Shown here one piece after another: positions 12,162-50,501 of a stretch of DNA of 64,000 nt. Below the pieces are notes generated by a model. It was given only the letters and a program-made list of their open reading frames with translations. It did no database searches and had not been told where the DNA came from. A program made the position numbers and the translations under genes. Source of the DNA: an uncultured Candidatus Bathyarchaeia archaeon (lineage in GTDB: Archaea > Thermoproteota > CALKCG01 > B24); assembly GCA_964463005.1 (NCBI GenBank), contig CAYWZZ010000002.1, positions 27,939 to 91,938 of the forward strand, in the 5' to 3' direction. Every line of letters begins with the position of its first letter. The stretch's first letter is position 1.

Positions 12162-13427
12162 TCAGTTTAAAGCCAGTTCAGCACCCATTCGCATAACCAG
12201 TATCCTGCCATTTGGTTTTTCCTTTAGAGCTTCATCTACAGCCTCTTGTAGATCGTTGGCGTAATTGAAGCCGAGCTTGCAAGCTAAACTCTCACTCAAA
12301 CCATCTGAAACGATTATACATTTAGCTCTATCTAAGACCTCCCTAACCATGACTATGTGTGCGGCGGCTATGAGGTCGTCTATAGATCCATCTTCAACCA
12401 TCTTCTTCACAACTGGTATAGGTTGATAACCGAGTTCTTCAACTTCAGGGTGCTCCTTTGAAACACCCTCAGGACATGGTGTTAGAAAAACTATAATCCC
12501 ACCCTTCTTAACGGCTAAAGCCGCTGGAAATAGAGCTTTAACGGCTTGCCACATATCTAAATCAGCAGGGTGACTATCTACAACGACTATGTCAGCTTTC
12601 TCCTCCAACTTAAATTTATAAATCAAATCAACTGTTCTAACAGCCTCTCTATGGGCTTTTACATAATCTCCGAATACTACGTCAACTACTTCTCTATTCC
12701 GATTCAATACAGTGTTTACGATAGCATTTAAGCCGACTTTTGAAGCTATACGCTCCATTTCCCACCTAACAGGGTTTTCAACAACCCCTAAAACCTCCTC
12801 TATAGGTATTAAAGCCGCCTTCCAATGTGTTTCACCAGTGACCTCAGCTCCACATATACCCGGCTGGATTATTTTAGCACCACCGGAGTATCCTGAAACT
12901 CTATGTGGTATAACGTTGCCGATGCCTATTTTAAAGTCCGCCTCCACCACATGCTTATTGACTTTCACAGGAGTCCCTGAATCAGTTAGACCTACTTCAA
13001 CGAGCTCATCTTCATTCCTCCACATGTGGTTTATAACCTCATATTCTTCAACGACTTCTTTTCCAAGCTTATTTTCAAGCTCCTCCTTCGTCATGGGTCT
13101 ATGTGTTCCTAAGGCCACCACTATCTTAATATTTTCACGTTTAACACCAGCCTCCTCAAATTCAGCTAGAATGTGAGGTATTACTCTATCCACTGGACAT
13201 ACTCTTGTATTATCTTCCGATATTACGGCGATTGTCATATTCGGCTTAACGTAATCTCTGATTCTCACATACCCTATGGGCTTCATTAGAGATTCTTTAA
13301 CAGCTACGTCTAAATGCTTAACAGGTTTTACACGCCGCGGCTCTATAATCCCTAAGACTCTACCTTCATCTACTTCAAATTCTCTACTCTCAATGCCGTA
13401 GTGCATAGTTACAGTACGTTTTTGCAT
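12162..13427 (-). CDS. LarA-like (lactate racemase domain, DUF2088) nickel-pincer enzyme family protein
   Basis: Size (421 aa) and overall similarity to LarA N- and C-terminal domains. Confidence 0.6.
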   Translation of the reverse strand: MQKRTVTMHYGIESREFEVDEGRVLGIIEPRRVKPVKHLDVAVKESLMKPIGYVRIRDYVKPNMTIAVISEDNTRVCPVDRVIPHILAEFEEAGVKRENIKIVVALGTHRPMTKEELENKLGKEVVEEYEVINHMWRNEDELVEVGLTDSGTPVKVNKHVVEADFKIGIGNVIPHRVSGYSGGAKIIQPGICGAEVTGETHWKAALIPIEEVLGVVENPVRWEMERIASKVGLNAIVNTVLNRNREVVDVVFGDYVKAHREAVRTVDLIYKFKLEEKADIVVVDSHPADLDMWQAVKALFPAALAVKKGGIIVFLTPCPEGVSKEHPEVEELGYQPIPVVKKMVEDGSIDDLIAAAHIVMVREVLDRAKCIIVSDGLSESLACKLGFNYANDLQEAVDEALKEKPNGRILVMRMGAELALN

Positions 13428-13832: not shown

Positions 13833-14243
13833 ATGTCTGCTAAAAGAGTATCTGTATTAGATAGTGACCGTTGTGTAGGCTGTCAGCTTTGCATGTTTGC
13901 ATGCAACAGAAGACTTGGATATAGTGGCTTAGGCCTTTCAGCCATACTTGTTAAATCTATAGGCGGTATCGAAAAGGGGTTTACAGTCATAGTATGTAGA
14001 GCTTGTCCAGATCCACCATGTCAGAAGGTATGTCCCACTGGGGCTTTAACTGTAAGGGTGGGCGGTGGAGTTAAATTAAACCCAGATAAATGTATTGGAT
14101 GTGGGCACTGTAGGGAGGCTTGTCCTTTTGGAGCTATATTTTGGAATTATGAGCTTAACAAGCCTATAGTATGTTTATACTGCGGCTACTGTGTAAAGTA
14201 CTGTCCTTATAAGATTCTAGCGTTTGAAGAGGTGAGAAGATGA
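13833..14243 (+). CDS. poly-[4Fe-4S] ferredoxin (AOR-associated electron-transfer subunit)
   Basis: Four Cys-rich cluster motifs (CVGCQLCMFAC, CRACPDPPC, CIGCGHCREACP, CLYCGYCVKYCP). Translationally coupled to the downstream AOR locus, with stop and start overlapping. Confidence 0.8.
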   Translation: MSAKRVSVLDSDRCVGCQLCMFACNRRLGYSGLGLSAILVKSIGGIEKGFTVIVCRACPDPPCQKVCPTGALTVRVGGGVKLNPDKCIGCGHCREACPFGAIFWNYELNKPIVCLYCGYCVKYCPYKILAFEEVRR

Positions 14244-38802: not shown

Positions 38803-40296
38803 TCACAGACGGCTTTCGCACGGTTTAAAGAAGTACTTGTATAAGTGGTCTGAAATAGCGCAGTATTTTTCAAACAGCTTAGAATATTTGATGCTATTCT
38901 CAAGAATAGGGTTAAAAACTCTAGTGAGTTTAACAGCGGAATTACAGGCGTCGCTTAAACCACTATAATAGCCTAGCGCTTTAGCCGCTAAAATAGCTGC
39001 ACCTAAAGCAGAGCTCTCCTCAGTAGATGTCAAGAATACAGGAGTTTGGAAAACATCCGCTTGGATTTGATTTAGAAGGCTCATTTTAGCCCCGCCTCCA
39101 CCTACTCTAATCTCCTTTATAGGAAGGACGTATTTCTCAAGGATCTTTTTGATGTGATTTAATGCAAATGCAACCCCCTCTAAAACGGCCCTAGAAATGT
39201 CGGATAATTTATGCTTTAAAGTTAAACCGTATAGGACAGCTTTAGCCGTGGAACACCAAAGCGGAGCCCTCTCCCCTAGGAGATAGGGTAGGAATATTAA
39301 ACCGTTGGCACCTGGTTTGGCTTTAGAAGCTTCAAATTCGACTCGATTAAGGTCTCCGTTGAAAAAGTTTTCTGCAAACCATTCAAAAGATAACCCAGCT
39401 GAGTTTATAGCACCACCTATACACCAGAGCCCTTCTGCTAAACTATGGCAGAAAAACCTCGCACTTCGTGATTTATCGAGCACGATGCGGTTAGAGGACA
39501 CTCTAATCGCTCCACTAGTCCCTATGTTTAGGGCCGCTACACCTTCTTTTAAGACACCTAAACCTATATTCTGAAGCATACCGTCTCCACCCCCACAGAT
39601 TACGGGAACTTTCTTAGAGAGACCGATCTCCTCTGCAGAACGCTCTTTAATATAGCCGACTATGGATTCTGCTTCAACGACTTCTGGAAGCTTATCAAAG
39701 TCTAAGCCAATTGCTTCAAGTATTTCGTGATCCCACTGATTCTTGCGTATATTGAAGAGTGCTGTAGCTGAAGCCAATATATTATCTGTAACGTAAATGT
39801 TCAAAAGCTTATATAGTACGTAGTCCTTTATCGATAAAACCTTATGAACTTTATTGAACACTTCGGGATAGTTTCTCCTAAACCAGAGGATTTTAGAAGC
39901 GGGCATGATGGGACTGATGTGGCATCCAGTTCTACGGTAGAGTTCATACACACCTATAGCCTTTGAAAGATCCGATGTCTCTGCGATGCTTCTAGAATCC
40001 ATCCAATTAAGTATGGGGCTTAAACAATCTCCATCCCTGTCAATGAATACCACACTGTACAATTGAGAACTAAAGGTTAAAGCCTCTACTTCACCCTTAA
40101 TGTTTTTGACGCAAGTCTTAATAGCTTCAACTACTGAACTTAAAACTTCATCAGGCTTCTGCTCAGCCCAACCTTCATTAGGTGTATATACCCTACATCG
40201 AACACTACTTTTAAAAACCTGCCTCCCTTCTAAATCAAAGGCCACAGCTTTAACATTGGTCGTACCTATATCTACACTAACTATGTAACCCGTCAA
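38803..40296 (-). CDS. FGGY-family carbohydrate kinase (gluconokinase/xylulokinase-like)
   Basis: DIGTTNVKA N-terminus. GGGA C-terminal ATP motif. Confidence 0.7.
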   Translation of the reverse strand: MTGYIVSVDIGTTNVKAVAFDLEGRQVFKSSVRCRVYTPNEGWAEQKPDEVLSSVVEAIKTCVKNIKGEVEALTFSSQLYSVVFIDRDGDCLSPILNWMDSRSIAETSDLSKAIGVYELYRRTGCHISPIMPASKILWFRRNYPEVFNKVHKVLSIKDYVLYKLLNIYVTDNILASATALFNIRKNQWDHEILEAIGLDFDKLPEVVEAESIVGYIKERSAEEIGLSKKVPVICGGGDGMLQNIGLGVLKEGVAALNIGTSGAIRVSSNRIVLDKSRSARFFCHSLAEGLWCIGGAINSAGLSFEWFAENFFNGDLNRVEFEASKAKPGANGLIFLPYLLGERAPLWCSTAKAVLYGLTLKHKLSDISRAVLEGVAFALNHIKKILEKYVLPIKEIRVGGGGAKMSLLNQIQADVFQTPVFLTSTEESSALGAAILAAKALGYYSGLSDACNSAVKLTRVFNPILENSIKYSKLFEKYCAISDHLYKYFFKPCESRL

Positions 40297-40433: not shown

Positions 40434-41372
40434 TTGTTCGAAGAATTAGGGCTAGTTGGCAACTCACTTATTCTTCTAGTAGCACTGGTTATCCTCGATA
40501 AAGCAAGTGACTGGACGATATTAAACTCTGTTAGGGTTGCGGATATAACTGGTTTCGGAAAAACAACTATGTTTCATACTAGTCGCGTTTTCCACTTCCC
40601 TGCCCGAACTTTTCGTTTCAATTTTCGCAACGATGGGTGGAGAAAATATAGGCATAGCTATTGGAAACGTTTTAGGCTCAAACATTGCAAACATCTGCCT
40701 TATACTTGGCGTATGCTTCCTAATCGTAACACTGAAAAGCTCAGATATCATAGAACTTGCAGTAATAATGGCGAAGGAGGAAATAGGAACACTCTACTCT
40801 GGACTTTTTTGGGCCTCTATCATTCCGTTAGCGCTTCTTTACATTGGATATGCCAGTAGAATTATCGGTATAATTCTCCTATCGATTTTTATGTTCTACG
40901 TATACCGGCTTTCAAAAACGAAAAACATTAGGGATGAGGGAGCTTTAGGAGATGAACGTCGAAGACTCCCAGATACGTGCTCTTTACAATTTTAGGAGCC
41001 GTTTTGGTGGTTGTAAGTTCATATTTCATTGTAGACTCTGCTTCTAACATTGCTAAAGACCTAGGAGTCCCGAAGGTTGTTATAGGCGCTACGATAGTCG
41101 CCTTTGGAACAAGCTTGCCAGAACTAATGACAAGTATAAGTGCTACTCAGAAAGGGCATATAGACTTGACTTTGGGCAACATCGTTGGAAGTTGCTTCGT
41201 AAACATAACATGTATTTTAGGCGTTGCATTAGTACCTACAAGGTTAAGTGTCAACATGGCTGCATTTTCAAATTTGGTAACGTTTTCACTTATAGTAAAC
41301 CTCCTACTTTGGTATTTCCTATCTAGTGAAAGAGTGGGCTGGAGGGAGGGAGTGATGTTGCTTTTCCTGTAG
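40434..41372 (+). pseudogene. CaCA-family cation/Ca2+ antiporter (YrbG-like) broken by two frameshifts
   Basis: Both alpha-repeats (GTSLPEL) are present, but in three frames (40434-40560, 40549-40995, 40956-41372). The first shift is at an A5 run near 40556-40562. The total length equals one 313-aa protein. Confidence 0.6.
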
Positions 41373-41475: not shown

Positions 41476-43311
41476 TTAATCCTCTAAGCTGATTATTAAG
41501 TCTAAGTTTAACCGTTTAATCGTCTCAGACTTCGGTATACCATTTTCATCCCATCCCCGTAGGATGTAGTACTCGTTTAACATTTTATCTAATTCGACTA
41601 TTGAGCCTTTAGCAGGCCCCTCTGGCATAGCTTCTTCTAAAAGCCTACGTGGTAAACAGTCGTCTCTCCGTCTAACGCCTTCCCTTACATTGAACAGACG
41701 CGTTAAATTGTATACTCTCTCACCAATAGTTCTCAACGTATCTGCTTCATTAAGCGGGAGGCCAGTGGCCGTAGCTAACATTTCACCTATTTCTCTAAAC
41801 GATAAGGCAAATGATGCGAAGAAGCATATGCCTGTAGAATCTATTAGTGCCTTTTCATTCTGGTAATCTACCACAAGCTTCGCTTTCCCATCCGCTTTAA
41901 CCGGGTCTACAGCTCCACCATATGCTAAAAGTTCTTTGTCAGCCGTATATGCTCTCAGATGACATGCACCTCTATCTGAAGTAGCGTATCCTAAACCCAT
42001 ACCTTTAGAGGCTCTAGGCTCATAACCTGGCATTTCTAAACCTTTAACATGCATAGCTATATCTTCGCAACCATATTTAACGCTCAGCTTCTTAACACCA
42101 AGTCTAAGTTCTTTTCCAACACCATCGCCCTTGCATATCTTCTCCACAAGCCTCAATAAAGCTTCACTACTACCCCACTTAGCATTGACTCCATCTAGGT
42201 CTTCGCTCTTGAGAATCTTTCTCTCGTAAAGCTCCATGACGAAGCTGACTATAACACCCGTACTTATCGTATCTACGCCATATGCATCGCATAGCCAGTT
42301 AGCGTAAACTATCGCCTCTTTATCTGAAACCCCACATAATGGTCCCAACGCCCATAACGTCTCATAATCCGGACCGTCAACTACATGAGCTAGTGTAAAT
42401 GTCAGTTTACTGCAAGCTATCGGACATCCGAAACAAGCTCTATCCTTCTTCCAAAGTTCCCTACGCCACTCATAACCGGATATCTTCCAAGTATCTTGGA
42501 AGACCCCTGTTTTAAAGTTTTTAGTCGGTAGTGCACCAGCTTCGTTTATAGTCTCGATTATGTTGACTGTACCATAGGTGGGTAAACTTCTGGCTGTAAC
42601 CTCATGCATTCTAATTCTCCTATGAGCTCTCCAACATGCTTTCTTAAAGCCATCTGGATCGTAAACGGTTATAGGCTTCTCCCCCCTAACAGCTATACTC
42701 TTGAGATTTTTAGAGCCCATGACTGCTCCGGCTCCCCCTCTCCCAGCGCAACGTTGATCTGTGAATATTCCAGCTATCGGTACTAATTCTTCACCAGCTG
42801 GACCTATTGTTAAAACTCTAAATTCTTCACCAAGCCTATCTTTCACCTTCTTTTCAGCCTCCATGGTTTTTAAACCCATCAGCCAGTTAGCATCTTCAAC
42901 GTACACGTCCCCATCATCTATAACGATCATCGATAACTGGCTAGCTTTTCCAGTAATCATAACGGCGTCAAAACCAGCTTTCTTAAGCTCAACTCCGAAG
43001 AAGCCTCCACAGTTAGAGTCTAAGAATAGACCAGTATGAGGGCTCTTGGTTACGATACTGAAGCGGCAACTTGAAGGAGCCAATGTTCCAGTTAAAGGTC
43101 CAGTTGCCAGTATTAGAGGATTTTCAGGACTTAGAGGATCTACACCTCTACGTGTAGAATTGTACAGTAGGAGAGACCCCAACCCCTTCCCTCCTAGAAC
43201 CATTAAGGCATCTTTTTGAGATAACACAGCCTTTTCCACTCTTCCAGACGAAAGATCTAGTTTAGCTATAGCTCCTGCATACCCTCTACCTGAAAGGCTC
43301 AAATTCACCAA
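41476..43311 (-). CDS. aor: tungsten-type aldehyde:ferredoxin oxidoreductase (AOR family), intact
   Basis: 611 aa. GRGGAGAVMGSKNLK, EYETLWALG and C-terminal YYILRGWDENG motifs. Confidence 0.85.
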   Translation of the reverse strand: MVNLSLSGRGYAGAIAKLDLSSGRVEKAVLSQKDALMVLGGKGLGSLLLYNSTRRGVDPLSPENPLILATGPLTGTLAPSSCRFSIVTKSPHTGLFLDSNCGGFFGVELKKAGFDAVMITGKASQLSMIVIDDGDVYVEDANWLMGLKTMEAEKKVKDRLGEEFRVLTIGPAGEELVPIAGIFTDQRCAGRGGAGAVMGSKNLKSIAVRGEKPITVYDPDGFKKACWRAHRRIRMHEVTARSLPTYGTVNIIETINEAGALPTKNFKTGVFQDTWKISGYEWRRELWKKDRACFGCPIACSKLTFTLAHVVDGPDYETLWALGPLCGVSDKEAIVYANWLCDAYGVDTISTGVIVSFVMELYERKILKSEDLDGVNAKWGSSEALLRLVEKICKGDGVGKELRLGVKKLSVKYGCEDIAMHVKGLEMPGYEPRASKGMGLGYATSDRGACHLRAYTADKELLAYGGAVDPVKADGKAKLVVDYQNEKALIDSTGICFFASFALSFREIGEMLATATGLPLNEADTLRTIGERVYNLTRLFNVREGVRRRDDCLPRRLLEEAMPEGPAKGSIVELDKMLNEYYILRGWDENGIPKSETIKRLNLDLIISLED

Positions 43312-44549
43312 CCCCCTTCTACTCTTAAAGCATTTCTAGAACACCATTTCACACACTCTGGCAGACCATCACAGAGGTCGCATAGGAGAAGTCTTCCATT
43401 TATAAGCTTTAAGACTTTTACTGGACAAGAGTCAACGCAAACGCCGCAACCTTGACATAGCTCTGGTGAAACTTCCACAGCTCCTGTTCTACTATTCACT
43501 CTAAGCGCCCCATTTGGACAGGCGTTCACACAAGAATAACATAGATTACAAACATATGGGATGAAGGCTTTTCCATCTTCAGAAACTTTAACCCTCAATC
43601 TTGCTAATGAAGAGTTGAAAACCTTCTCATGAGAGAAACTGCATGCGAGCTCGCATATACGGCAACCACTACATCTCTCAACGTCGACTAGTATCCTAAC
43701 AGGAGGTTTGATTCTCTCTCTAAGAATGTCTGTTACTGTTTCCTTTCCATGAATTATCCTCCTCATAAGTCTAACGGCTTCATCTGGATTCGGATCTTGA
43801 ACTACATTCCTACCGAAGACCACCCCAACTGCACCAACATCTAAAACTTCAGATATAACCTCTAGAGAGTCCCTTATACTTAACGCCTTATAACCTCCTA
43901 AAACTAAAACTGGAACACCTGAGGATGCTTCAACAACCTCCTTAAACGAATATGGATCACCTGTATACGGAACCTTCAACGCATCAGCTCCAAGCTCTAC
44001 GGCCTTTTCAACAGCCTTCCTAACCATGTCGACGTAATTCGCCTTAGTAACCCTAGGACCCATGGGGAGCGGCTCTATGATCAAAGGCATGCTCCAAGTT
44101 TTACATTCGCTTGAAAACTCTTCAACCATCGCTATGTGATCATTCTCCCCCTCAAAACCTAGGAAAAGATATGTTACCACACCTGAAGCCCCAACCTTAA
44201 CAGCCTCCTTAACCGTAGCAACCTTGTTGAACTGTATGCTTCTAGCTGGTAACGTATACGTTTTATCTCTAAACGCATTGGTCCAGTCTACTCTGACGAG
44301 CATAGCTGGAGCGCCTTTACCTGTGAATAAGTGACTGAGCTTTCTAGCCTGACCTAGGCTTACTAGAATAGCGTCTGGTCCACCTGCTATGACCTTTCTA
44401 AGTGTCGCTTCTAAGTCTACAACACCCTTTATAGGTCCAAGCATTAAACCGTGATCCGCCGCTACGACTAAGCTTCTACCATCAGATGGATCTATAATCT
44501 TACTTAATCTGACAAGTTTGCCAAAGCTCAATTCAATCGAGCCTCCCAT
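43305..44549 (-). CDS. class-I (archaeal FbaB/DhnA-type) aldolase fused to C-terminal poly-[4Fe-4S] ferredoxin domain
   Basis: ELGADALKVPYTGD...PVLVLGGYK...VVFGRNVVQ matches the Thermoproteus-type class-I FBP aldolase, including the Schiff-base Lys. The C-terminal 140 aa carry 3-4 CxxCxxCxxxC(P) motifs. Confidence 0.7.
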   Translation of the reverse strand: MGGSIELSFGKLVRLSKIIDPSDGRSLVVAADHGLMLGPIKGVVDLEATLRKVIAGGPDAILVSLGQARKLSHLFTGKGAPAMLVRVDWTNAFRDKTYTLPARSIQFNKVATVKEAVKVGASGVVTYLFLGFEGENDHIAMVEEFSSECKTWSMPLIIEPLPMGPRVTKANYVDMVRKAVEKAVELGADALKVPYTGDPYSFKEVVEASSGVPVLVLGGYKALSIRDSLEVISEVLDVGAVGVVFGRNVVQDPNPDEAVRLMRRIIHGKETVTDILRERIKPPVRILVDVERCSGCRICELACSFSHEKVFNSSLARLRVKVSEDGKAFIPYVCNLCYSCVNACPNGALRVNSRTGAVEVSPELCQGCGVCVDSCPVKVLKLINGRLLLCDLCDGLPECVKWCSRNALRVEGGW

Positions 44550-45297
44550 GAACTATCGACAACACATCTGTCAGGAGATCGACTGGATTTCCGATGTTAA
44601 GAGATCTGCCTAAGACTATACCGTTTAATCCAATGTCAAGAACGCTTAGTAAAATATCTGAAAGGTTCTGTTGCATCTTTTCAATTACGAGCTTGGAAGA
44701 TGGATCCATGAGAAGCGTATAGGTCTTAACAGACTCTATGACGTTTTTCAAATCCTCGATGTTCTTAAGAGGCGGTACAGCTACTATGGAGGCACCTACT
44801 TCAACAGCCATTCTAGCAGCTAAGCCAACACTTTCACTATAATTTTCACTACTTACCCTTTCACCGAAGGGCACGGCTTCAACTATGAACGGCAATTCAT
44901 AATCGTAGCAAACGTCGGAAAGTATTGCTATAAGCTTCACGCTGTTAGAATCTATACGTTCATCTTCATGGCCTATCGTAAGGGTGGAAATGACCGCTGA
45001 AAAATCCATTCGTAAAGCTTCAACAACAAGTTCTTCAATGTTAGCCTTAGGGTTTGAAGACTGTAAAACTTCAGAGTTGACTCTCAAAATGTAGGATGGT
45101 GATCTTCTACCTAGAAACACATGCTTATTTTTAATTATAGACTCCGCATCCGCTACAATTAAACCGTCAAGTCTCTTAATGATACCAGTATCTGTTGCAA
45201 TAATCTTCTGGAAGGCAAAGTCATCACTACAATCGACTAAAACACACCTTAAATCCGTTGGATTCAAGATCCGCCCTATACGGATAGTAAACGTCAT
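44533..45297 (-). CDS. class-I aldolase-like paralog lacking the Schiff-base lysine (pseudo-enzyme or regulatory subunit?)
   Basis: Colinear with the aldolase domain, but the catalytic-Lys position reads ASIVAVPP instead of ADALKVPY. It overlaps the fusion gene by 17 nt. Confidence 0.55.
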   Translation of the reverse strand: MTFTIRIGRILNPTDLRCVLVDCSDDFAFQKIIATDTGIIKRLDGLIVADAESIIKNKHVFLGRRSPSYILRVNSEVLQSSNPKANIEELVVEALRMDFSAVISTLTIGHEDERIDSNSVKLIAILSDVCYDYELPFIVEAVPFGERVSSENYSESVGLAARMAVEVGASIVAVPPLKNIEDLKNVIESVKTYTLLMDPSSKLVIEKMQQNLSDILLSVLDIGLNGIVLGRSLNIGNPVDLLTDVLSIVHGRLD

Positions 45298-45339
45298 ATT
45301 CTAGTTTAATAATTTTGAGTTGGTCTATTTAAAGCTCTT

Positions 45340-46641
45340 TCATGACAATCCCTCAATAATAACGCCGCCGACGATTGTAGCTTCAACTTTAACGTTGAAG
45401 CACCCCGGCGCACCTTCAACCCTCAGCACTGTCAGATCCGCCTTCATTCCTTTTTCAATAACTCCTCTATCTGTCAACCCCTCCAATTTCGCTTGATTAG
45501 ATGATGTCAACATTGAGACTAATCTAATGGACTCGTCTAGGCTTCTAGAATCGACATCTATCATAAAACCAGAGTGGTTAACTGTGAACATGTTTAAGAG
45601 GTTTTGAAAAGCCCTATCCATAGTTAGCAAACTTGAGCATAGCGTATTTGGAGGCGCTGGCTTCACCTCTTCACCATCGAAGTACCCCTTTACCACTAGA
45701 ACGTCTTCAACGGGATGTTTGCAACATATCGTTGAAAATATTCTAAATTCCCCGACTGGAACTTCCCTTTTAATCGGAAATGCAGAGTCCGTTATAGCTA
45801 TGACTTCATGAGGTCTATTTTTACGAATTCTCCTCTCAATTATATCCGAGACGTAGCGGAAGTCTACATGATACCCGTCTACGATTATCTCCACGTATAA
45901 TGGTAGAGTTAACGCCGCTTCATACGTACCTCCACCGTCGAAGGGCTTGAAAGACTGGCCCATAGCTCCATTGGTTATGTGGACTATAAACTTTAACCCC
46001 AAGTTGAAGGCCTCTTCCACCTTTTTAGCTGAGGCTTTTGTATGTCCACATCCAACTATAACACCTTTAGATACTGCATACTTTATAAGATCAACCCCAA
46101 AATCTGGGACTATATTGACAAACTTAACAACACCAGTCTCCAACATGGAATCAAGCATGTGTTTCGCTCTGGGAGAATTAGGAGGAATTATGTAATCTTT
46201 GGGTTGAGCACCTGCACATTCAACGTTTATGAAAGTACCCTCTACATAAGCACCTTCAAATCTAGCACCTTCAACACCGTTCTCGTAAGATTCCATGTAG
46301 GTTTTACACGTTTTCAAATACGTTAAGAGGTCTTCAAACGGCATGGCTACGGTGGCTAAATGAAAAGCCGTAACCCCTTGACCTGCTAAAGCCTTCGAAA
46401 CCCTACTTATTCTATCAGGGTTTGTCAGAAATTTAGTTAAACCGATGATATCGTGCGTATGTTGTTCTCTAAAACCTGGAACAACATAACAGCCGTCGCA
46501 ATCAAAAACCTCCCCTTTAGATCTAACAGAGACACCTATATTACTGATATAGCCGTTCTCAACGACCAAGTTCCCCTTTAAAACACCTCTAGGTGTAACT
46601 ATCAAACCGTTTTTAAGAGTTAGACTCATGGCGATTATCAT
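45340..46641 (-). CDS. NagA-family amidohydrolase (N-acetylglucosamine-6-phosphate deacetylase-like)
   Basis: PGFREQHTHD, GCGHT, ITDS and SSLTMD motifs align with NagA. Confidence 0.65.
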   Translation of the reverse strand: MIIAMSLTLKNGLIVTPRGVLKGNLVVENGYISNIGVSVRSKGEVFDCDGCYVVPGFREQHTHDIIGLTKFLTNPDRISRVSKALAGQGVTAFHLATVAMPFEDLLTYLKTCKTYMESYENGVEGARFEGAYVEGTFINVECAGAQPKDYIIPPNSPRAKHMLDSMLETGVVKFVNIVPDFGVDLIKYAVSKGVIVGCGHTKASAKKVEEAFNLGLKFIVHITNGAMGQSFKPFDGGGTYEAALTLPLYVEIIVDGYHVDFRYVSDIIERRIRKNRPHEVIAITDSAFPIKREVPVGEFRIFSTICCKHPVEDVLVVKGYFDGEEVKPAPPNTLCSSLLTMDRAFQNLLNMFTVNHSGFMIDVDSRSLDESIRLVSMLTSSNQAKLEGLTDRGVIEKGMKADLTVLRVEGAPGCFNVKVEATIVGGVIIEGLS

Positions 46642-46703: not shown

Positions 46704-47711
46704 CTAATATCTTCTCTCAACTATGAACTCCGTCAAAGCCTCTAGAAGGTCTCTAGCTTCTGTTTTAGGAAGCAATGTTAAAGCCTTTTTCGCCTTTGAA
46801 GAGTATTGATGGGCGAGTTTTTTGACGTACTCCACAGCTCCCGAAGACTCTATGAGCTCTATGGCTTCTAATATATGCTCCTTAGAAGCAGACCTATTAC
46901 CTAAAATCTCCATAAGTCTGCGTCTTCCACGGTCGTCAAGTCTATTTAAGGCTTCGAGTACAACTATGGTCTTCTTCCCCTCCCTTATATCACTTCCAAC
47001 AGGTTTACCCAGCTCTTCTTCAACGCCAGAAACCCCGAGTATGTCATCCACCATTTGAAAAGCGATACCAGAGTAAAATCCGTAGTTTTTCAAAGCTTCG
47101 ATCTTATTTGGAGACGCTTCAGCTATAAGCCCACCTATCTCTGCAGAAACCATATACAACCTAGCCGTCTTAAGGCCGATCATCTTCATGTAATCTTCCA
47201 CAGTCACGCTACGTACTGGCTTTTCAGCTAAAGCCATATCCATGGTTTGTCCTGCGCATATATCTATTAGAGCCTCAGAGAATCTTTCAATGACGCTCAC
47301 TATGACAGATTCTTTAACGCCCTCGGACTTCAGGTTTTTAGATAAAACTTTGAAGACTAATGCAAAAAGCATATCGCCTGATATTATGGCTTGAGGAGTA
47401 CCCCAGAGAACATGAACTGTTGGAACACCCCTCCTAGTTTCATCACGGTCAATGATATCATCGTGGATCAACGTAAACGTATGTAGAATTTCAACCGCCA
47501 CAGCAACGGGATACGGTTTGAAGCCAGTTCCACCACACGCTTCATAAGACTTCACAAGCATAAATGGTCTAAGCCGCTTACCGCCAGCTTTTAAAAGGTG
47601 GTAGCTGGATTCACGTAGAACATTGGGAATATCAAGCTCTTTCATAATTCTAGATAATTCGCTGGAAATGTTCTCCGAAATTTTAGATATTTCACCCATG
47701 AGATTTACCAT
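46704..47711 (-). CDS. idsA: geranylgeranyl diphosphate synthase (trans-prenyltransferase)
   Basis: FARM motif LIHDDIIDRD and SARM motif DDILG. Confidence 0.85.
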   Translation of the reverse strand: MVNLMGEISKISENISSELSRIMKELDIPNVLRESSYHLLKAGGKRLRPFMLVKSYEACGGTGFKPYPVAVAVEILHTFTLIHDDIIDRDETRRGVPTVHVLWGTPQAIISGDMLFALVFKVLSKNLKSEGVKESVIVSVIERFSEALIDICAGQTMDMALAEKPVRSVTVEDYMKMIGLKTARLYMVSAEIGGLIAEASPNKIEALKNYGFYSGIAFQMVDDILGVSGVEEELGKPVGSDIREGKKTIVVLEALNRLDDRGRRRLMEILGNRSASKEHILEAIELIESSGAVEYVKKLAHQYSSKAKKALTLLPKTEARDLLEALTEFIVERRY

Positions 47712-47714
47712 TAC

Positions 47715-48791
47715 TCACACCCTAACCTTCAACTTTCTAAATGTGGCCCACTCTCTGACAAAACCAGTTAGAATATACGGTTTCCTTTTAAGATCTTCTA
47801 TTCTCTCAGAGCCTGTTAAAACCATAGCCAACTTTAATTCTCCACATATCTTTTTTAAGAGTTTTAATACGCTTTCCCAACTTTCCATAGCAGGTTTGAG
47901 TAGAGGCAGTGCTAAACCAGCTAAATCCGCTCCTAAAACTAGAGCTTTAGCAACATCTAAACCGCTTCGAATACCTCCAGATGCCACTAATGGAATGTCT
48001 ACAGCAGTCCTCACCTCAAGTATGGAAATGGCCGTGGGTATCCCCCAATCCCAGAAAGTCTTAGAGAGCTCAGCCCTCTCCCAATCACCAGCTTCCATAC
48101 TTCTATAGTATTCTACGCCAGCCCAGCTTGTTCCACCCGCTCCAGACGCTTCAAGCGCATCGACTCCTGCGGATGCTAAAAGTTCAGCGTCTTCTCTACA
48201 TATGCCGGATCCAACTTCCTTAACTATTATTGGAAATTCAACTCTCGACTTCAACTCCCTGAGCTTATTTAGAACGCCTCTGAATATACGCGTCCCATCG
48301 TGTTGGAGGAATTCATGGAGGGGGTTTAAATGGATGGTTAAAGCATCTGCTTCAACCATTTCGACGAGCTTCTTCAATTCACCATATGGATAGGTTAAAA
48401 GCTCTTGAAAACCTATGTTAGCTGAAATGAATATGTGCTTCGCATTCTCCCTTGCAATTTTAAAGGAGTACGTGCAACTGGGGTTTTCAAGACACGCTCT
48501 ACCACTTCCAAGACACATACCTATACCAAGTTCCTCAGCGGCTTTAGCTAGATTTGCGTTTATCTTAGCCGCTTCAGCCATTCCACCAGTCATAGCGGAA
48601 ATGATCATCGGAGCTTTAAACCTAAACCCTAGAAACTCAACAGAGAGGTCTAGTTTTTCAAACTCAACCTCTGGGAGGCATCTGTGGATTAAATGTACGT
48701 TTTCAAAACCCGTTGTGATGTTTTTGACTTCAACCATCTTTTCAGAGCATATCCGTACATGGTCGCTCTTCCTTTTACTAGTAGAATCCAT
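47715..48791 (-). CDS. fni: isopentenyl-diphosphate isomerase type 2 (FMN-dependent)
   Basis: Overall IDI-2 similarity (…MTGG...). Operon context. Confidence 0.8.
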   Translation of the reverse strand: MDSTSKRKSDHVRICSEKMVEVKNITTGFENVHLIHRCLPEVEFEKLDLSVEFLGFRFKAPMIISAMTGGMAEAAKINANLAKAAEELGIGMCLGSGRACLENPSCTYSFKIARENAKHIFISANIGFQELLTYPYGELKKLVEMVEADALTIHLNPLHEFLQHDGTRIFRGVLNKLRELKSRVEFPIIVKEVGSGICREDAELLASAGVDALEASGAGGTSWAGVEYYRSMEAGDWERAELSKTFWDWGIPTAISILEVRTAVDIPLVASGGIRSGLDVAKALVLGADLAGLALPLLKPAMESWESVLKLLKKICGELKLAMVLTGSERIEDLKRKPYILTGFVREWATFRKLKVRV

Positions 48792-49588
48792 TATCGAACA
48801 CCTTTTATCAACGTGCCTCTAACCTTTTCACCCTTAAGAGCCTTAAAAAGCCTACCGGGTTTCAATCCATTGATTATATGGACGTCTATACCCATACTCG
48901 CTATCTTACAGGCCTGTTCGAGTTTAAAGCGCATTCCTCCAGTAGCATTAGACGATTTGAAACTTAATCTATTTAAGAGAGAATTTACTTCAGCGACGGA
49001 GGTCTCATCTATAAGTTCAACATTGGAATTGTACTTAGGATCTGCTGGGTACAACCCATCAACGTCAATCGTGAATATGACTTTTAAAGGTTTAATTTTA
49101 CGTGAGAGTTCGAACATCAATAGATCGCCAGATACTATCGAAAAACCTTTATCGAGATCAAATGCAACATCTCCAAAAGTTACAGGCGTTAAATTCATGT
49201 TTAAAGCGTTTATAAAAGGCTCATAGAATATTTTCTTTAAAATACCGGATGTTAAGATTGCAAAGGCTAGAGGGGGGAACGGGACAGCCTTCAATCCCTT
49301 ACGCTCTAACGCTTTTAGAACTTCTTCGTTTAGTTTAAGCATAGCTCTATGCGTGGCAATGAAGCCTCCAATCTGCTCTTCCAAACCCATAAATCTCTCA
49401 TTAAGCTTATACTTTAAAGCTAAGGGATGGCCAAAAGACCCCCCTCCATGCACTATTACGATCTTCTTCAAGTTGGAAGCTGAAACTTCAGCCGCAAGCC
49501 TATTTAGGGCTCTACGGTTGACACTCATAGGCTTATTTTTAATCGTTATAACGCTACCGCCGAGTTTAATTATAGCCTCAGCTCTCAT
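48791..49588 (-). CDS. ipk: isopentenyl phosphate kinase
   Basis: Amino-acid-kinase fold (KLGGSVIT..., HGGGSFGH). Confidence 0.8.
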   Translation of the reverse strand: MRAEAIIKLGGSVITIKNKPMSVNRRALNRLAAEVSASNLKKIVIVHGGGSFGHPLALKYKLNERFMGLEEQIGGFIATHRAMLKLNEEVLKALERKGLKAVPFPPLAFAILTSGILKKIFYEPFINALNMNLTPVTFGDVAFDLDKGFSIVSGDLLMFELSRKIKPLKVIFTIDVDGLYPADPKYNSNVELIDETSVAEVNSLLNRLSFKSSNATGGMRFKLEQACKIASMGIDVHIINGLKPGRLFKALKGEKVRGTLIKGVR

Positions 49589-50501
49589 ATGTTACACCAG
49601 TTCTAGATATTGGAGCAATTATAGGTTCTCCTCCAGCTTGCCTTATGGCTTCTACGATCGATTTTAAACGTTCCCTAGGTGCTAGAGCTATGATGCAACC
49701 CCCTCCACCGCCTCCGGTTAATTTAGCTCCTAAAGCCCCAGCTTCTCTAGACGCATATACGAGTTTATTGATCTTGAAATTTGAAACGCCTATGGCTTCA
49801 AGTAAACCGTGGTTTACATTCATGAGTAAACCCAGTTCTTCAAGGTCTCCCTTTTCAAGTGCTTCCAAGGCTCTTGAAACTATGGATGAGCACGTTTTTC
49901 TAAGACCATCCATAATATCTCTCCTCTTCTCGGCGAAGACTCTGACCTTTTCAACCATAGCTCCGGTAGACCTACTTTCTCCAGTATTTCCTATTATGAG
50001 TGTAAATTCTCCTCCCAACTTCACTGGTTTAATTCCTACTCCACGCTGGTATAGTACAGCTCCGCCATTGACGGATACGGCTGGGTCTATGCCCGAAGGA
50101 TTTACGTGAACCGTTTTCTCGCATTCTAAAGCCATTTTGAAAAGCTCATCTCTGGACAATTCAACTCCAAATAAACCCGTTATTGCTGCTATGACGGCTA
50201 AAGCCGTGGCTGCCGAGGAACCTAAGCCGACAGACACTGGCAAGTTGGACTCTATTTTCACACGTATGTTTCTATCCTTTGAGTTTACAGCCTTTAAGGC
50301 AACGTCTATGGCTTTATCGATTAGAGCCGTTCTAGAGCCTTCGATAAATGTAGATTGAGACCTGTAAGCGGTTACTTTAACTCTGAGGTTCAGTGCTACA
50401 GCTATCGCTGGCTCACCGTAAACTACAAAGTGCTCTCCGAAAAGTATGACTTTACCCGGCGCTGAAGCGCTACAGAAAGTCTTCATTTCAAACACGCTCA
50501 A
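49578..50501 (-). CDS. mvk: mevalonate kinase (GHMP)
   Basis: SAPGKVILFGEH and GLGSSAA motifs. Confidence 0.8.
   Translation of the reverse strand: MSVFEMKTFCSASAPGKVILFGEHFVVYGEPAIAVALNLRVKVTAYRSQSTFIEGSRTALIDKAIDVALKAVNSKDRNIRVKIESNLPVSVGLGSSAATALAVIAAITGLFGVELSRDELFKMALECEKTVHVNPSGIDPAVSVNGGAVLYQRGVGIKPVKLGGEFTLIIGNTGESRSTGAMVEKVRVFAEKRRDIMDGLRKTCSSIVSRALEALEKGDLEELGLLMNVNHGLLEAIGVSNFKINKLVYASREAGALGAKLTGGGGGGCIIALAPRERLKSIVEAIRQAGGEPIIAPISRTGVTYES

Follow-up and report, generated by a model that had tools for sequence, protein, structure and literature searches.

A class I aldolase::polyferredoxin fusion, a Lys-less aldolase paralog and an aldehyde:ferredoxin oxidoreductase are encoded together in uncultured archaea and bacteria

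The physiological substrates of most enzymes of the aldehyde:ferredoxin oxidoreductase (AOR) family are not known, since many aldehydes are oxidised by these enzymes in vitro. In two described systems, AorAB(C) of Aromatoleum aromaticum (PDB entry 8c0z) and the WOR5/ASOR alpha-beta enzyme of Pyrococcus furiosus (6x6u, 6x1o), an AOR subunit is paired with an adjacent partner carrying four [4Fe-4S] clusters. A 2025 review of obligately tungsten-dependent enzymes describes polyferredoxin, flavin adenine dinucleotide (FAD) and HydABC-like subunits as AOR partners, and the word 'aldolase' is absent from it. Here we describe a locus in a 64,000-nucleotide stretch of DNA from an uncultured Candidatus Bathyarchaeia archaeon (assembly GCA_964463005.1, contig CAYWZZ010000002.1, positions 27,939 to 91,938 of the forward strand; the whole stretch is called the window below) that has an AOR gene and an adjacent polyferredoxin like these systems, but in which a class I aldolase carries the polyferredoxin as its C-terminal domain, and a second aldolase-like protein that lacks the Schiff-base Lys is present as a third component. 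Neither the FAD subunit of AorABC (AorC) nor a HydABC-like module is part of it. The locus appears to be a variant of the AOR complexes, and its aldolase belongs to no characterised aldolase equivalog.

The order of these three genes recurs far beyond chance. Scanning one genome per GTDB species yielded 148 stretches that scored positive. Of these, the best 80, all covering both domains of the fusion, were analysed together with four contigs from exact look-ups, which makes 84 loci. (Open reading frames (ORFs) in these loci were called mechanically, the flanks reached at most 10 kb, and the word- and pattern-based prefilters make the family counts lower bounds.) An AOR gene lies downstream of the fusion, on the same strand, in all 77 loci that extend past the fusion, and in the other 7 of the 84 the contig ends at the fusion. 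An earlier note on this DNA, made from the letters of the sequence, had allowed that homologs of the fusion might turn out to be common fructose-bisphosphate (FBP) aldolases without AOR linkage; given this linkage, that possibility does not apply. The paralog is found upstream of the fusion in 77 loci. Exceptions to the usual order are few: in three Sigynarchaeota loci (L003, L004, L043) the paralog follows the AOR gene instead of preceding the fusion, and in two Cytophagia-labelled loci (L047, L051) one extra ORF, of 375 aa and 102 aa respectively and assigned to no family, stands between fusion and AOR. Projected junctions are tight, with a median of +6 nt between paralog and fusion (68/77 within 30 nt) and of -7 nt between fusion and AOR (66/77 within 30 nt). 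The archaeal lineages that carry the module are Bathyarchaeia, Brockarchaeota, Thermoproteota, Hadarchaeota and Asgard archaea, and the bacterial ones are KSB1, Calditrichaeota, Zhuqueibacterota, Planctomycetota, Bacteroidota/Ignavibacteriota, Aminicenantes, Thermotogaceae and many Chloroflexota. The hosts span about ten archaeal and bacterial phyla, all represented by metagenome-assembled genomes (MAGs). One contig with the module, JBLNEM010000034.1 (L032), is titled 'MAG: Mycobacterium leprae isolate MAG73', which is implausible for a gene set of anaerobe type and probably a taxonomic mislabel.

Database searches for the fused protein return about 92 full-length clusters with the window protein as query, 544 clusters at E<=1e-60 with a Chloroflexi query, and 412 at E<=1e-100 with an Ignavibacteriales query. 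The closest relatives, at 83-93% identity, come from Bathyarchaeia MAGs. The names given to these proteins include '4Fe-4S binding protein', 'class I fructose-bisphosphate aldolase', 'DhnA family.../Fe-S-cluster-containing hydrogenase component' and 'Cgl0159 family protein'. No true split (unfused) variant of the module was found among the candidates examined. An apparent split into aldolase, ferredoxin and AOR (P0094/L085, 4354-7141) is a frameshift artefact, in which the aldolase C-terminus turns into Arg-rich nonsense after 'RDALEV', and in two other candidates (P0096/L086 and P0101/L087) a DhnA aldolase stands alone, in an unrelated context and with no AOR.

The architecture that the earlier note had read in the 414-aa fusion, a ferredoxin module joined to the C-terminus of an aldolase, is confirmed by Pfam profile search: PF01791 (DeoC/DhnA) matches residues 28-251 with 119 bits, and several Fer4 models match residues 286-410. 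The polyferredoxin domain contains 16 Cys (C293 through C403) in four CxxCxxCxxxC-type motifs. Among 83 full-length fusion homologs 15 of these Cys are invariant, and the remaining one, C337, is Cys in 81. Sixteen Cys suffice for four [4Fe-4S] clusters, as in AorA and WOR5-beta, and the domain is predicted to bind that number. Its closest solved chains are all AOR partner subunits (WOR5 6x6u_B, 1e-26 and 42% identity; AorA 8c0z_C, 2e-22; 9mqx_E, 9e-15), and Foldseek aligns it to 6x6u_B with a template modelling (TM) score of 0.70. The four Cys motifs, the homology to solved partner subunits and the adjacent AOR gene place the domain with the AorA/WOR5-beta type. Sequence and Foldseek searches returned no PDB chain that covers both the aldolase and the ferredoxin domain, and a full-text literature search brought up no paper in which an AOR or a ferredoxin fusion is connected with a DhnA protein or a class I aldolase. 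The statement in the earlier note that no characterised aldolase-ferredoxin fusion was known therefore stands for the searchable literature and the PDB.

The barrel of the fusion is most similar, among solved structures, to the Methanocaldococcus jannaschii 2-amino-3,7-dideoxy-D-threo-hept-6-ulosonate (ADH) synthase MJ0400 (2qjg; 2e-36), followed by the FBP aldolase (FBPA) of Thermoproteus tenax and by LsrF, and it shares 27-30% identity with the DhnA-type solved aldolases. An AlphaFold2 model built from a 19-sequence alignment is a confident two-domain unit with a mean predicted local distance difference test score (pLDDT) of 89 and a predicted TM score of 0.83, and Foldseek relates it to 2qjg (TM 0.90), to 1ojx, the T. 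tenax FBPA (0.88), and to LsrF, 4p2v (0.80). Both the Pfam score and these TM scores identify the (beta-alpha)8 barrel of the DhnA family. K192 of the fusion (codon 43976-43974) aligns with Lys 184 of chain 2qjg_A, which we take to be the Schiff-base residue of MJ0400. (The catalytic and ligand roles of residues in the reference enzymes are used here as generally described in the literature.) By its description, PDB entry 2qjh shows ADH synthase in covalent linkage with dihydroxyacetone phosphate (DHAP).

The fused barrel shares with MJ0400, T. tenax FBPA and LsrF not only the fold but also the Lys on strand beta6 (GAD-x-x-K), the beta1 Asp-His pair, and the phosphate-binding loops that follow beta7 (GG) and beta8 (GR). 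The residues concerned, D32, H33, K192, G218-G219 and G246-R247, are invariant in 85/85 fusion homologs, some of which are as low as 38% in identity. Since K192, D32, H33 and the phosphate-binding motifs are all unchanged in this set, catalysis in the fused barrel looks selected for. There are in addition residues that are invariant in the 85 homologs and specific to this family, namely R86, D88, R94, Y127 and E159. R94 lies within an insertion (VRxDWTNAFR..LP) that MJ0400 lacks, and Glu159 is on beta5; the insertion, this Glu, the replacement of the catalytic Tyr and the following Arg (considered below), the Fe-S domain and the Lys-less partner distinguish the fusion from MJ0400 and T. tenax FBPA. 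Residues 95-102, immediately after R94, are the sole internal segment of the AlphaFold2 model with pLDDT <50 and are modelled as a disordered loop. This segment, around which the RxDW...R motif is kept in the Lys-less paralog as well, may be an interface or a lid that becomes ordered only inside a complex.

The second aldolase paralog was described in the earlier note as lacking the Schiff-base Lys, and this is confirmed both in the window, where the position is Ala in alignments with MJ0400 and T. tenax FBPA, and across loci, where Lys is found in 0/81 paralogs (Ala, Ile, Val or Leu stands there). The 254-aa protein is still a full-length, though weak, DhnA match (PF01791 31 bits; PRK07226 E=5e-16 over residues 4-252), with MJ0400 as its PDB match (1.5e-9), and at E<=1e-3 it has only 124 relatives among 1.84 billion representatives. 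In the 81 paralogs Ser or Thr mostly replaces the beta1 Asp, neither phosphate-binding loop is left, and no substitute conserved Lys is found in the barrel; the family-specific segment LVRxDWTNAxR..LP is kept. In a neighbour-joining (NJ) tree rooted on MJ0400, 85 fusion barrels and 79 paralogs are reciprocally monophyletic sister clades, with mean distances of 0.44 for the fusion barrels and 0.71 for the paralogs. The pattern points to one ancient duplication within the subfamily, after which one copy would have lost catalysis and been kept everywhere as a pseudo-enzyme subunit. A non-catalytic partner subunit has a parallel in GatZ/KbaZ, the partners of the class II tagatose-bisphosphate aldolases GatY/KbaY, but those belong to a different fold family and have no known link to a redox enzyme.

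The third protein is a member of the AOR family. It contains AFOR_N (233.7 bits) and AFOR_C (450.9 bits) domains and has 43% identity to P. furiosus AOR, 1aor (510 bits), and 42% to AorB. In 69 full-length module AORs, C293, C296, C300, E317, H451 and D347 are present in 69/69 and C496 in 68/69 (the other is an X), so that the four cluster Cys, the pterin DxxGxD motif, and a Glu and a His aligned to the 1aor motifs are all in place; E317 and H451 correspond to E313 and H448 of P. furiosus AOR, which we take to be the catalytic Glu and His. The earlier note called the enzyme a tungsten AOR. This label is an assumption, as the family is one of tungsto/molybdopterin enzymes and the metal may be W or Mo. 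NJ analysis groups the module AORs in a single clade that excludes four AORs of solved structure as well as five further AORs from the same contigs, and they therefore have been inherited together with the aldolase pair.

Taken together, these observations give about an even chance that the three genes specify a single complex in which a ketose phosphate is cleaved, the resulting aldehyde is oxidised directly, and the electrons leave through the fused clusters to ferredoxin. The complex is proposed because the fused Fe-S domain is of the type that docks onto AOR catalytic subunits, and the aldehyde is proposed as the coupling metabolite because no other metabolite is shared by an AOR and an aldolase of the DHAP type. 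The contact between the AOR and the polyferredoxin domain of the fusion would resemble that of AorB with AorA and of WOR5-alpha with WOR5-beta, and the aldolase barrel of the fusion would form a hetero-oligomer with the Lys-less paralog. The active barrel would first form a Schiff base between K192 and a phosphorylated ketose, the likeliest substrate class being a sugar-derived ketose 1-phosphate or 1,n-bisphosphate, and would then cleave it to DHAP and an aldehyde. The aldehyde would be passed directly to the AOR and converted to an acid, probably a 2-hydroxy acid, while two electrons would travel through the AOR cluster and the four fused clusters (five in all) to soluble ferredoxin. Removal of the aldehyde by oxidation would draw the aldol cleavage, itself unfavourable, towards its products, and no free, reactive aldehyde would be released. 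In this scheme the assembly of a complex, the channeling, the class of substrate and the reaction direction are all predicted features. The intramolecular electron hand-off imagined in the earlier note has to be amended: the AOR and the ferredoxin domain are two polypeptides, so the transfer would be between subunits.

The logic of such a complex has precedents. In DmpFG and BphI-BphJ, an aldolase releases a toxic aldehyde to a bound, adjacently encoded aldehyde-oxidising enzyme, and the two proteins are a class II metal aldolase and a NAD/CoA-dependent acylating dehydrogenase. The module would use the same logic with unrelated proteins: its electron acceptor would be an Fe-S chain leading to ferredoxin and its product a free acid, and no Pfam match to the HMGL-type aldolase or acylating acetaldehyde dehydrogenase families is found in the module proteins. 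In the archaeal non-phosphorylative Entner-Doudoroff branch, 2-keto-3-deoxy-(6-phospho)gluconate (KD(P)G) aldolase acts first and glyceraldehyde is then oxidised by an AOR-family enzyme. Aldol cleavage followed by ferredoxin-linked oxidation is common to that branch and to the module as proposed, but there the two enzymes are separate, unlinked proteins and the aldolase is a pyruvate aldolase of the dihydrodipicolinate synthase/N-acetylneuraminate lyase type.

A number of observations weigh against coupled aldol cleavage and aldehyde oxidation. The catalytic Tyr of the DhnA aldolases lies two residues after beta5 (Y146 in T. tenax, Y153 in MJ0400); at the corresponding position 161 the 85 fusion homologs have Leu, Met, Ile or Val, and at position 163 they have Val, Tyr or Met, where MJ0400 has Tyr and Arg, respectively. 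The fusion also falls under all of the NCBIfam equivalog cut-offs (NF040816, 151.5 vs 430; TIGR01949, 167.6 vs 299.45; PRK07226, 203.5 vs 241), and these two findings may mean that its chemistry differs from simple FBPA-type cleavage. The NJ trees carry no support values or bootstraps, and long-branch effects on the paralog clade are possible. The archaeal, Chloroflexi and Ignavibacteriales queries returned metagenome and MAG proteins only, with no cultured host among them. No single sugar pathway emerges from the genes that flank the 84 loci, since the flanks differ between lineages, and among them there is no conserved gene by which the acid product could be used. Finally, some operons contain further aldolases: Chloroflexi operons also have a class II PF01116 aldolase, and three loci (L021, L030, L085) have a third, Lys-containing DhnA/Cgl0159-like aldolase beside a divergent FGGY kinase. 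These extra aldolases are apparently competent, and therefore the aldolase of the module is not obviously needed to make the aldehyde.

The fused barrel accordingly has to be described with some care. The earlier note called it a class I FBP-aldolase-type barrel that retains its Schiff-base Lys. It is indeed a class I DhnA barrel with K192, but the missing Tyr and Arg and the missed cut-offs mean that it cannot be called an orthodox FBP aldolase. The best NCBIfam match is to the ADH synthase by which archaea make aromatic amino acids; this identity was considered and rejected, as the match is below the cut-off, the catalytic Tyr is missing, and the module occurs in many bacteria and among sugar-catabolic genes. 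The barrel looks catalytic, with a remodelled active site that conforms to neither of these enzymes.

The strongest alternative, itself unlikely, is that the barrels act mainly as an oligomeric scaffold or a ligand-sensing regulator for a general, aldehyde-detoxifying AOR, with catalysis uncoupled. That one of the two barrels is non-catalytic and yet is universally retained would be readily understood in this way, as would the extra aldolases in some operons, and DhnA aldolases assemble into large oligomers, with 10-20 chains in each of the PDB entries for MJ0400, T. tenax FBPA and LsrF. However, the Lys, the beta1 Asp-His pair and the phosphate-binding loops are unchanged in 85/85 fusion barrels across two domains of life, which is not what a pure scaffold would lead one to expect, and the paralog has lost exactly those residues that the fusion keeps.

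It is also possible, though improbable, that the same complex runs reductively, with reduced ferredoxin driving the conversion of an acid to an aldehyde that is then condensed with DHAP, so that organic acids would be assimilated into sugar phosphates. The sequences give no indication of direction, and synteny, fusion and conserved residues fit this route equally well. The favourable aldol condensation would pull the very unfavourable reduction of the acid; AORs are reported (PMC9295118) to reduce non-activated acids with low-potential donors; and reduced ferredoxin is plausible in the hosts, which by their record titles are anaerobes of sediments and hot springs. Against this route, the neighbouring genes are mainly catabolic (glycosidases, sugar kinases, isomerases, LacI repressors), and no gene for acid uptake or activation is conserved near the module.

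GAPOR-type glycolysis, which depends on a glyceraldehyde-3-phosphate:ferredoxin oxidoreductase (GAPOR), is established in hyperthermophilic archaea and lends some credit to a glycolytic shunt. The barrel would then be an aldolase for FBP or another bisphosphate and the AOR would be GAPOR-like, converting glyceraldehyde 3-phosphate to 3-phosphoglycerate and bypassing glyceraldehyde-3-phosphate dehydrogenase and phosphoglycerate kinase. The nearest families do include the archaeal class I FBP aldolase (NF040816, 151 bits; TM 0.88 to T. tenax FBPA), and the invariant R86 and R94 could bind a distal anionic group. However, R86, D88 and R94 are kept in the Lys-less paralog too, which suggests a structural role; the catalytic Tyr and Arg of FBPA are missing; the AOR groups with AOR sensu stricto (43% identity to 1aor), and the GAPOR model matches its N-terminus only, with 60 bits against a cut-off of 1300; and the module sits in variable accessory sugar operons, not beside core glycolysis genes. 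The shunt is as doubtful an explanation as the reductive route. That the genes are merely co-transcribed neighbours with independent functions, the Fe-S domain serving some other redox or sensing purpose without coupling to the AOR, is allowed by evidence that consists of sequence and synteny, but is very improbable given the 77/77 linkage over about ten phyla with overlapping junctions, an Fe-S domain homologous specifically to AOR-binding subunits, and AORs that form a dedicated clade.

The features of the locus are collected in Table 1. The four minus-strand ORFs listed in the earlier note are present exactly as placed there, but not all of them overlap: the paralog/fusion and fusion/AOR junctions are tight, and the NagA-like gene is separated from the paralog by a spacer. 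With ATG 44549 as the start of the fusion, it overlaps the paralog by 17 nt; with TTG 44531, a 1-nt gap separates the two. The TTG is the more likely start because it gives a protein of 408 aa, like the closest homologs (P0002-P0004), has GGGAGG upstream, and lies 1 nt past the paralog stop. The AOR starts at TTG 43311 or at GTG 43308, with an overlap of 7 nt in the first case; in the second, the GTG forms GTGA with the fusion stop and has GAAGGGGG just upstream. In the spacer before the paralog a TATA-like TTTAAATA is located at 45333-45326, about 28 nt upstream of the paralog ATG, and its T/A core is invariant in the window and its relatives L005, L006, L008 and L010. The three-gene core may therefore have its own, putative archaeal promoter in this spacer. 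No Rfam match to a molybdenum or tungsten cofactor (Moco/Wco) riboswitch or to any other riboswitch was found upstream of the module in 7 bacterial loci, and within the window Rfam matches a single tRNA only.

Table 1. Features in and around the three-gene module, with coordinates in the window
Feature	Coordinates	Strand	Remarks
FGGY-family sugar kinase (xylulokinase-like)	38803-40296	-	TIGR01312 XylB 390 bits vs cut-off 380.25
AOR-family aldehyde:ferredoxin oxidoreductase, 611 aa	41476-43311	-	AFOR_N + AFOR_C
Aldolase::polyferredoxin fusion, 414 aa as called	43305-44549	-	PF01791 + Fer4
Polyferredoxin domain of fusion, residues ~285-414	43305-43697	-	Fer4 models, 16 Cys
Aldolase domain of fusion, residues 1 to ~277	43719-44549	-	PF01791
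Lys-less DhnA-type aldolase paralog, 254 aa	44533-45297	-	First gene of three-gene core
Spacer of 42 nt, NagA-like gene to paralog	45298-45339	-	TATA-like TTTAAATA
NagA-family amidohydrolase, 433 aa	45340-46641	-	Probable start ATG 46629; outside conserved core

The NagA-like gene was counted in the earlier note as part of a four-gene unit, and a link to amino-sugar catabolism was suggested. Neither idea carries over to the family: the conserved unit consists of three genes, and a NagA-like gene stands beside it in only four of the 84 loci (L005, L006, L008 and L010), all of them close Bathyarchaeia, so that it is ruled out as a member of the module and any connection with amino sugars is not general. 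It is probably served by a separate promoter. The protein has the amidohydrolase HxH, Glu, His and His motifs aligned with Bacillus subtilis NagA, 2vhl, and scores below the cut-offs of the NagA equivalogs (TIGR00221, 118.8 bits vs a cut-off of 225.65; PRK11170, 70.4 vs 483). Immediately upstream of it in the window, at 46704-50501 on the minus strand, is a compact isoprenoid run, which marks the DNA as archaeal and begins with geranylgeranyl diphosphate (GGPP) synthase and continues, as judged by eye, with ORFs for type 2 isopentenyl diphosphate isomerase, isopentenyl-phosphate kinase and mevalonate kinase. The window shares the order GGPP synthase, NagA-like gene, module with L006, L008 and L010, and also with L005, whose contig breaks off within the synthase gene.

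The flanks of the module are heterogeneous, with sugar metabolism over-represented. FGGY kinases occur within 10 kb in about 15-17 of the 84 loci, about 13 of them in one sequence cluster; such a kinase directly follows the AOR on the same strand in L006 and directly precedes the module in several Anaerolineae, and the one in the window is a possible accessory gene of the module in this lineage. Between it and the AOR the window contains, at 40434-41372 on the plus strand, a membrane-protein gene split over three reading frames, whose translation is Na+/Ca2+-exchanger-like by eye and which is absent in L006. Homologs of the LarA-type, nickel-pincer nucleotide (NPN)-dependent 2-hydroxyacid racemase lie near the module in 15 loci. 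Other flanking genes encode xylose-isomerase-like triosephosphate isomerase (TIM) barrels, PfkB kinases, DUF4432 proteins, fucose-isomerase-like and D-lyxose-isomerase proteins, alpha- and beta-galactosidases, LacI regulators, GlcD-like FAD oxidases, MtaA/URO-D-like proteins and, in Chloroflexi, TauE exporters. The LarA and GlcD-like neighbours are weakly consistent with a 2-hydroxy-acid product such as lactate, glycerate or glycolate.

Two operon types can be recognised in Chloroflexota. One has the order CCG/Fer4 protein, AP_endonuc_2, UPF0261, creatininase-like, LarA, module, TauE, UPF0261 and phosphoenolpyruvate (PEP)-hydrolase-like, and the other the order fucose-isomerase-like, class II aldolase (PF01116), FGGY kinase, (DUF4432), module and LacI; the loci of the two types are L063, L065 and L083 (about 5.5-10 kb) and L067, L071, L072 and L076. 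The TauE gene found downstream in about 8 Chloroflexi loci prompted the idea of a sulfoquinovose aldolase of the sulfo-Embden-Meyerhof-Parnas (sulfo-EMP) type with oxidation of sulfolactaldehyde. This idea is speculative, as TauE is generic and the YihT-type aldolases are distant structural matches (TM <=0.66).

A second AOR locus in the window was used in the earlier note as an example of the usual arrangement of a separate ferredoxin and an AOR. The separate ferredoxin is intact (13833-14243, plus strand; 136 aa, 16 Cys), but the AOR that follows it has at least three frame changes (0, 2, 0, 2) between 14240 and 15864, and is either a pseudogene or affected by indel errors in the assembly. 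Divergent beside this locus is a 421-aa ORF (12162-13427, minus strand) that by eye is LarA-type (Lar_N), and LarA homologs identified by Pfam and NCBIfam stand directly upstream of the module in several Anaerolineae (L067, L071, L072, L076); there may be a recurrent association of AOR and LarA.

An aldolase fused to the electron-transfer subunit of an AOR should reveal which aldehyde this AOR clade meets in the cell. The chance is somewhat short of even that the module is an unrecognised three-subunit machine that couples sugar-phosphate C-C cleavage directly to the reduction of ferredoxin, with a new AOR subfamily whose substrate is set by a built-in aldolase, and that it represents a ferredoxin-dependent branch of sugar fermentation widespread in uncultured archaea and bacteria. 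If so, it would be the first case of an Fe-S chain attached to a class I aldolase and a tungsten/ferredoxin counterpart of DmpFG-type channeling, and its paralog would be a clear case of a pseudo-enzyme that has been retained as a subunit. Biocatalysis may also find a use for a module that couples an aldolase to acid/aldehyde redox chemistry. In hundreds of MAGs the fusion carries the label '4Fe-4S binding protein' or 'class I fructose-bisphosphate aldolase'. Where it has been counted as a glycolytic FBP aldolase in models of the metabolism of Bathyarchaeia, Chloroflexota and other groups, those models would need to be corrected.

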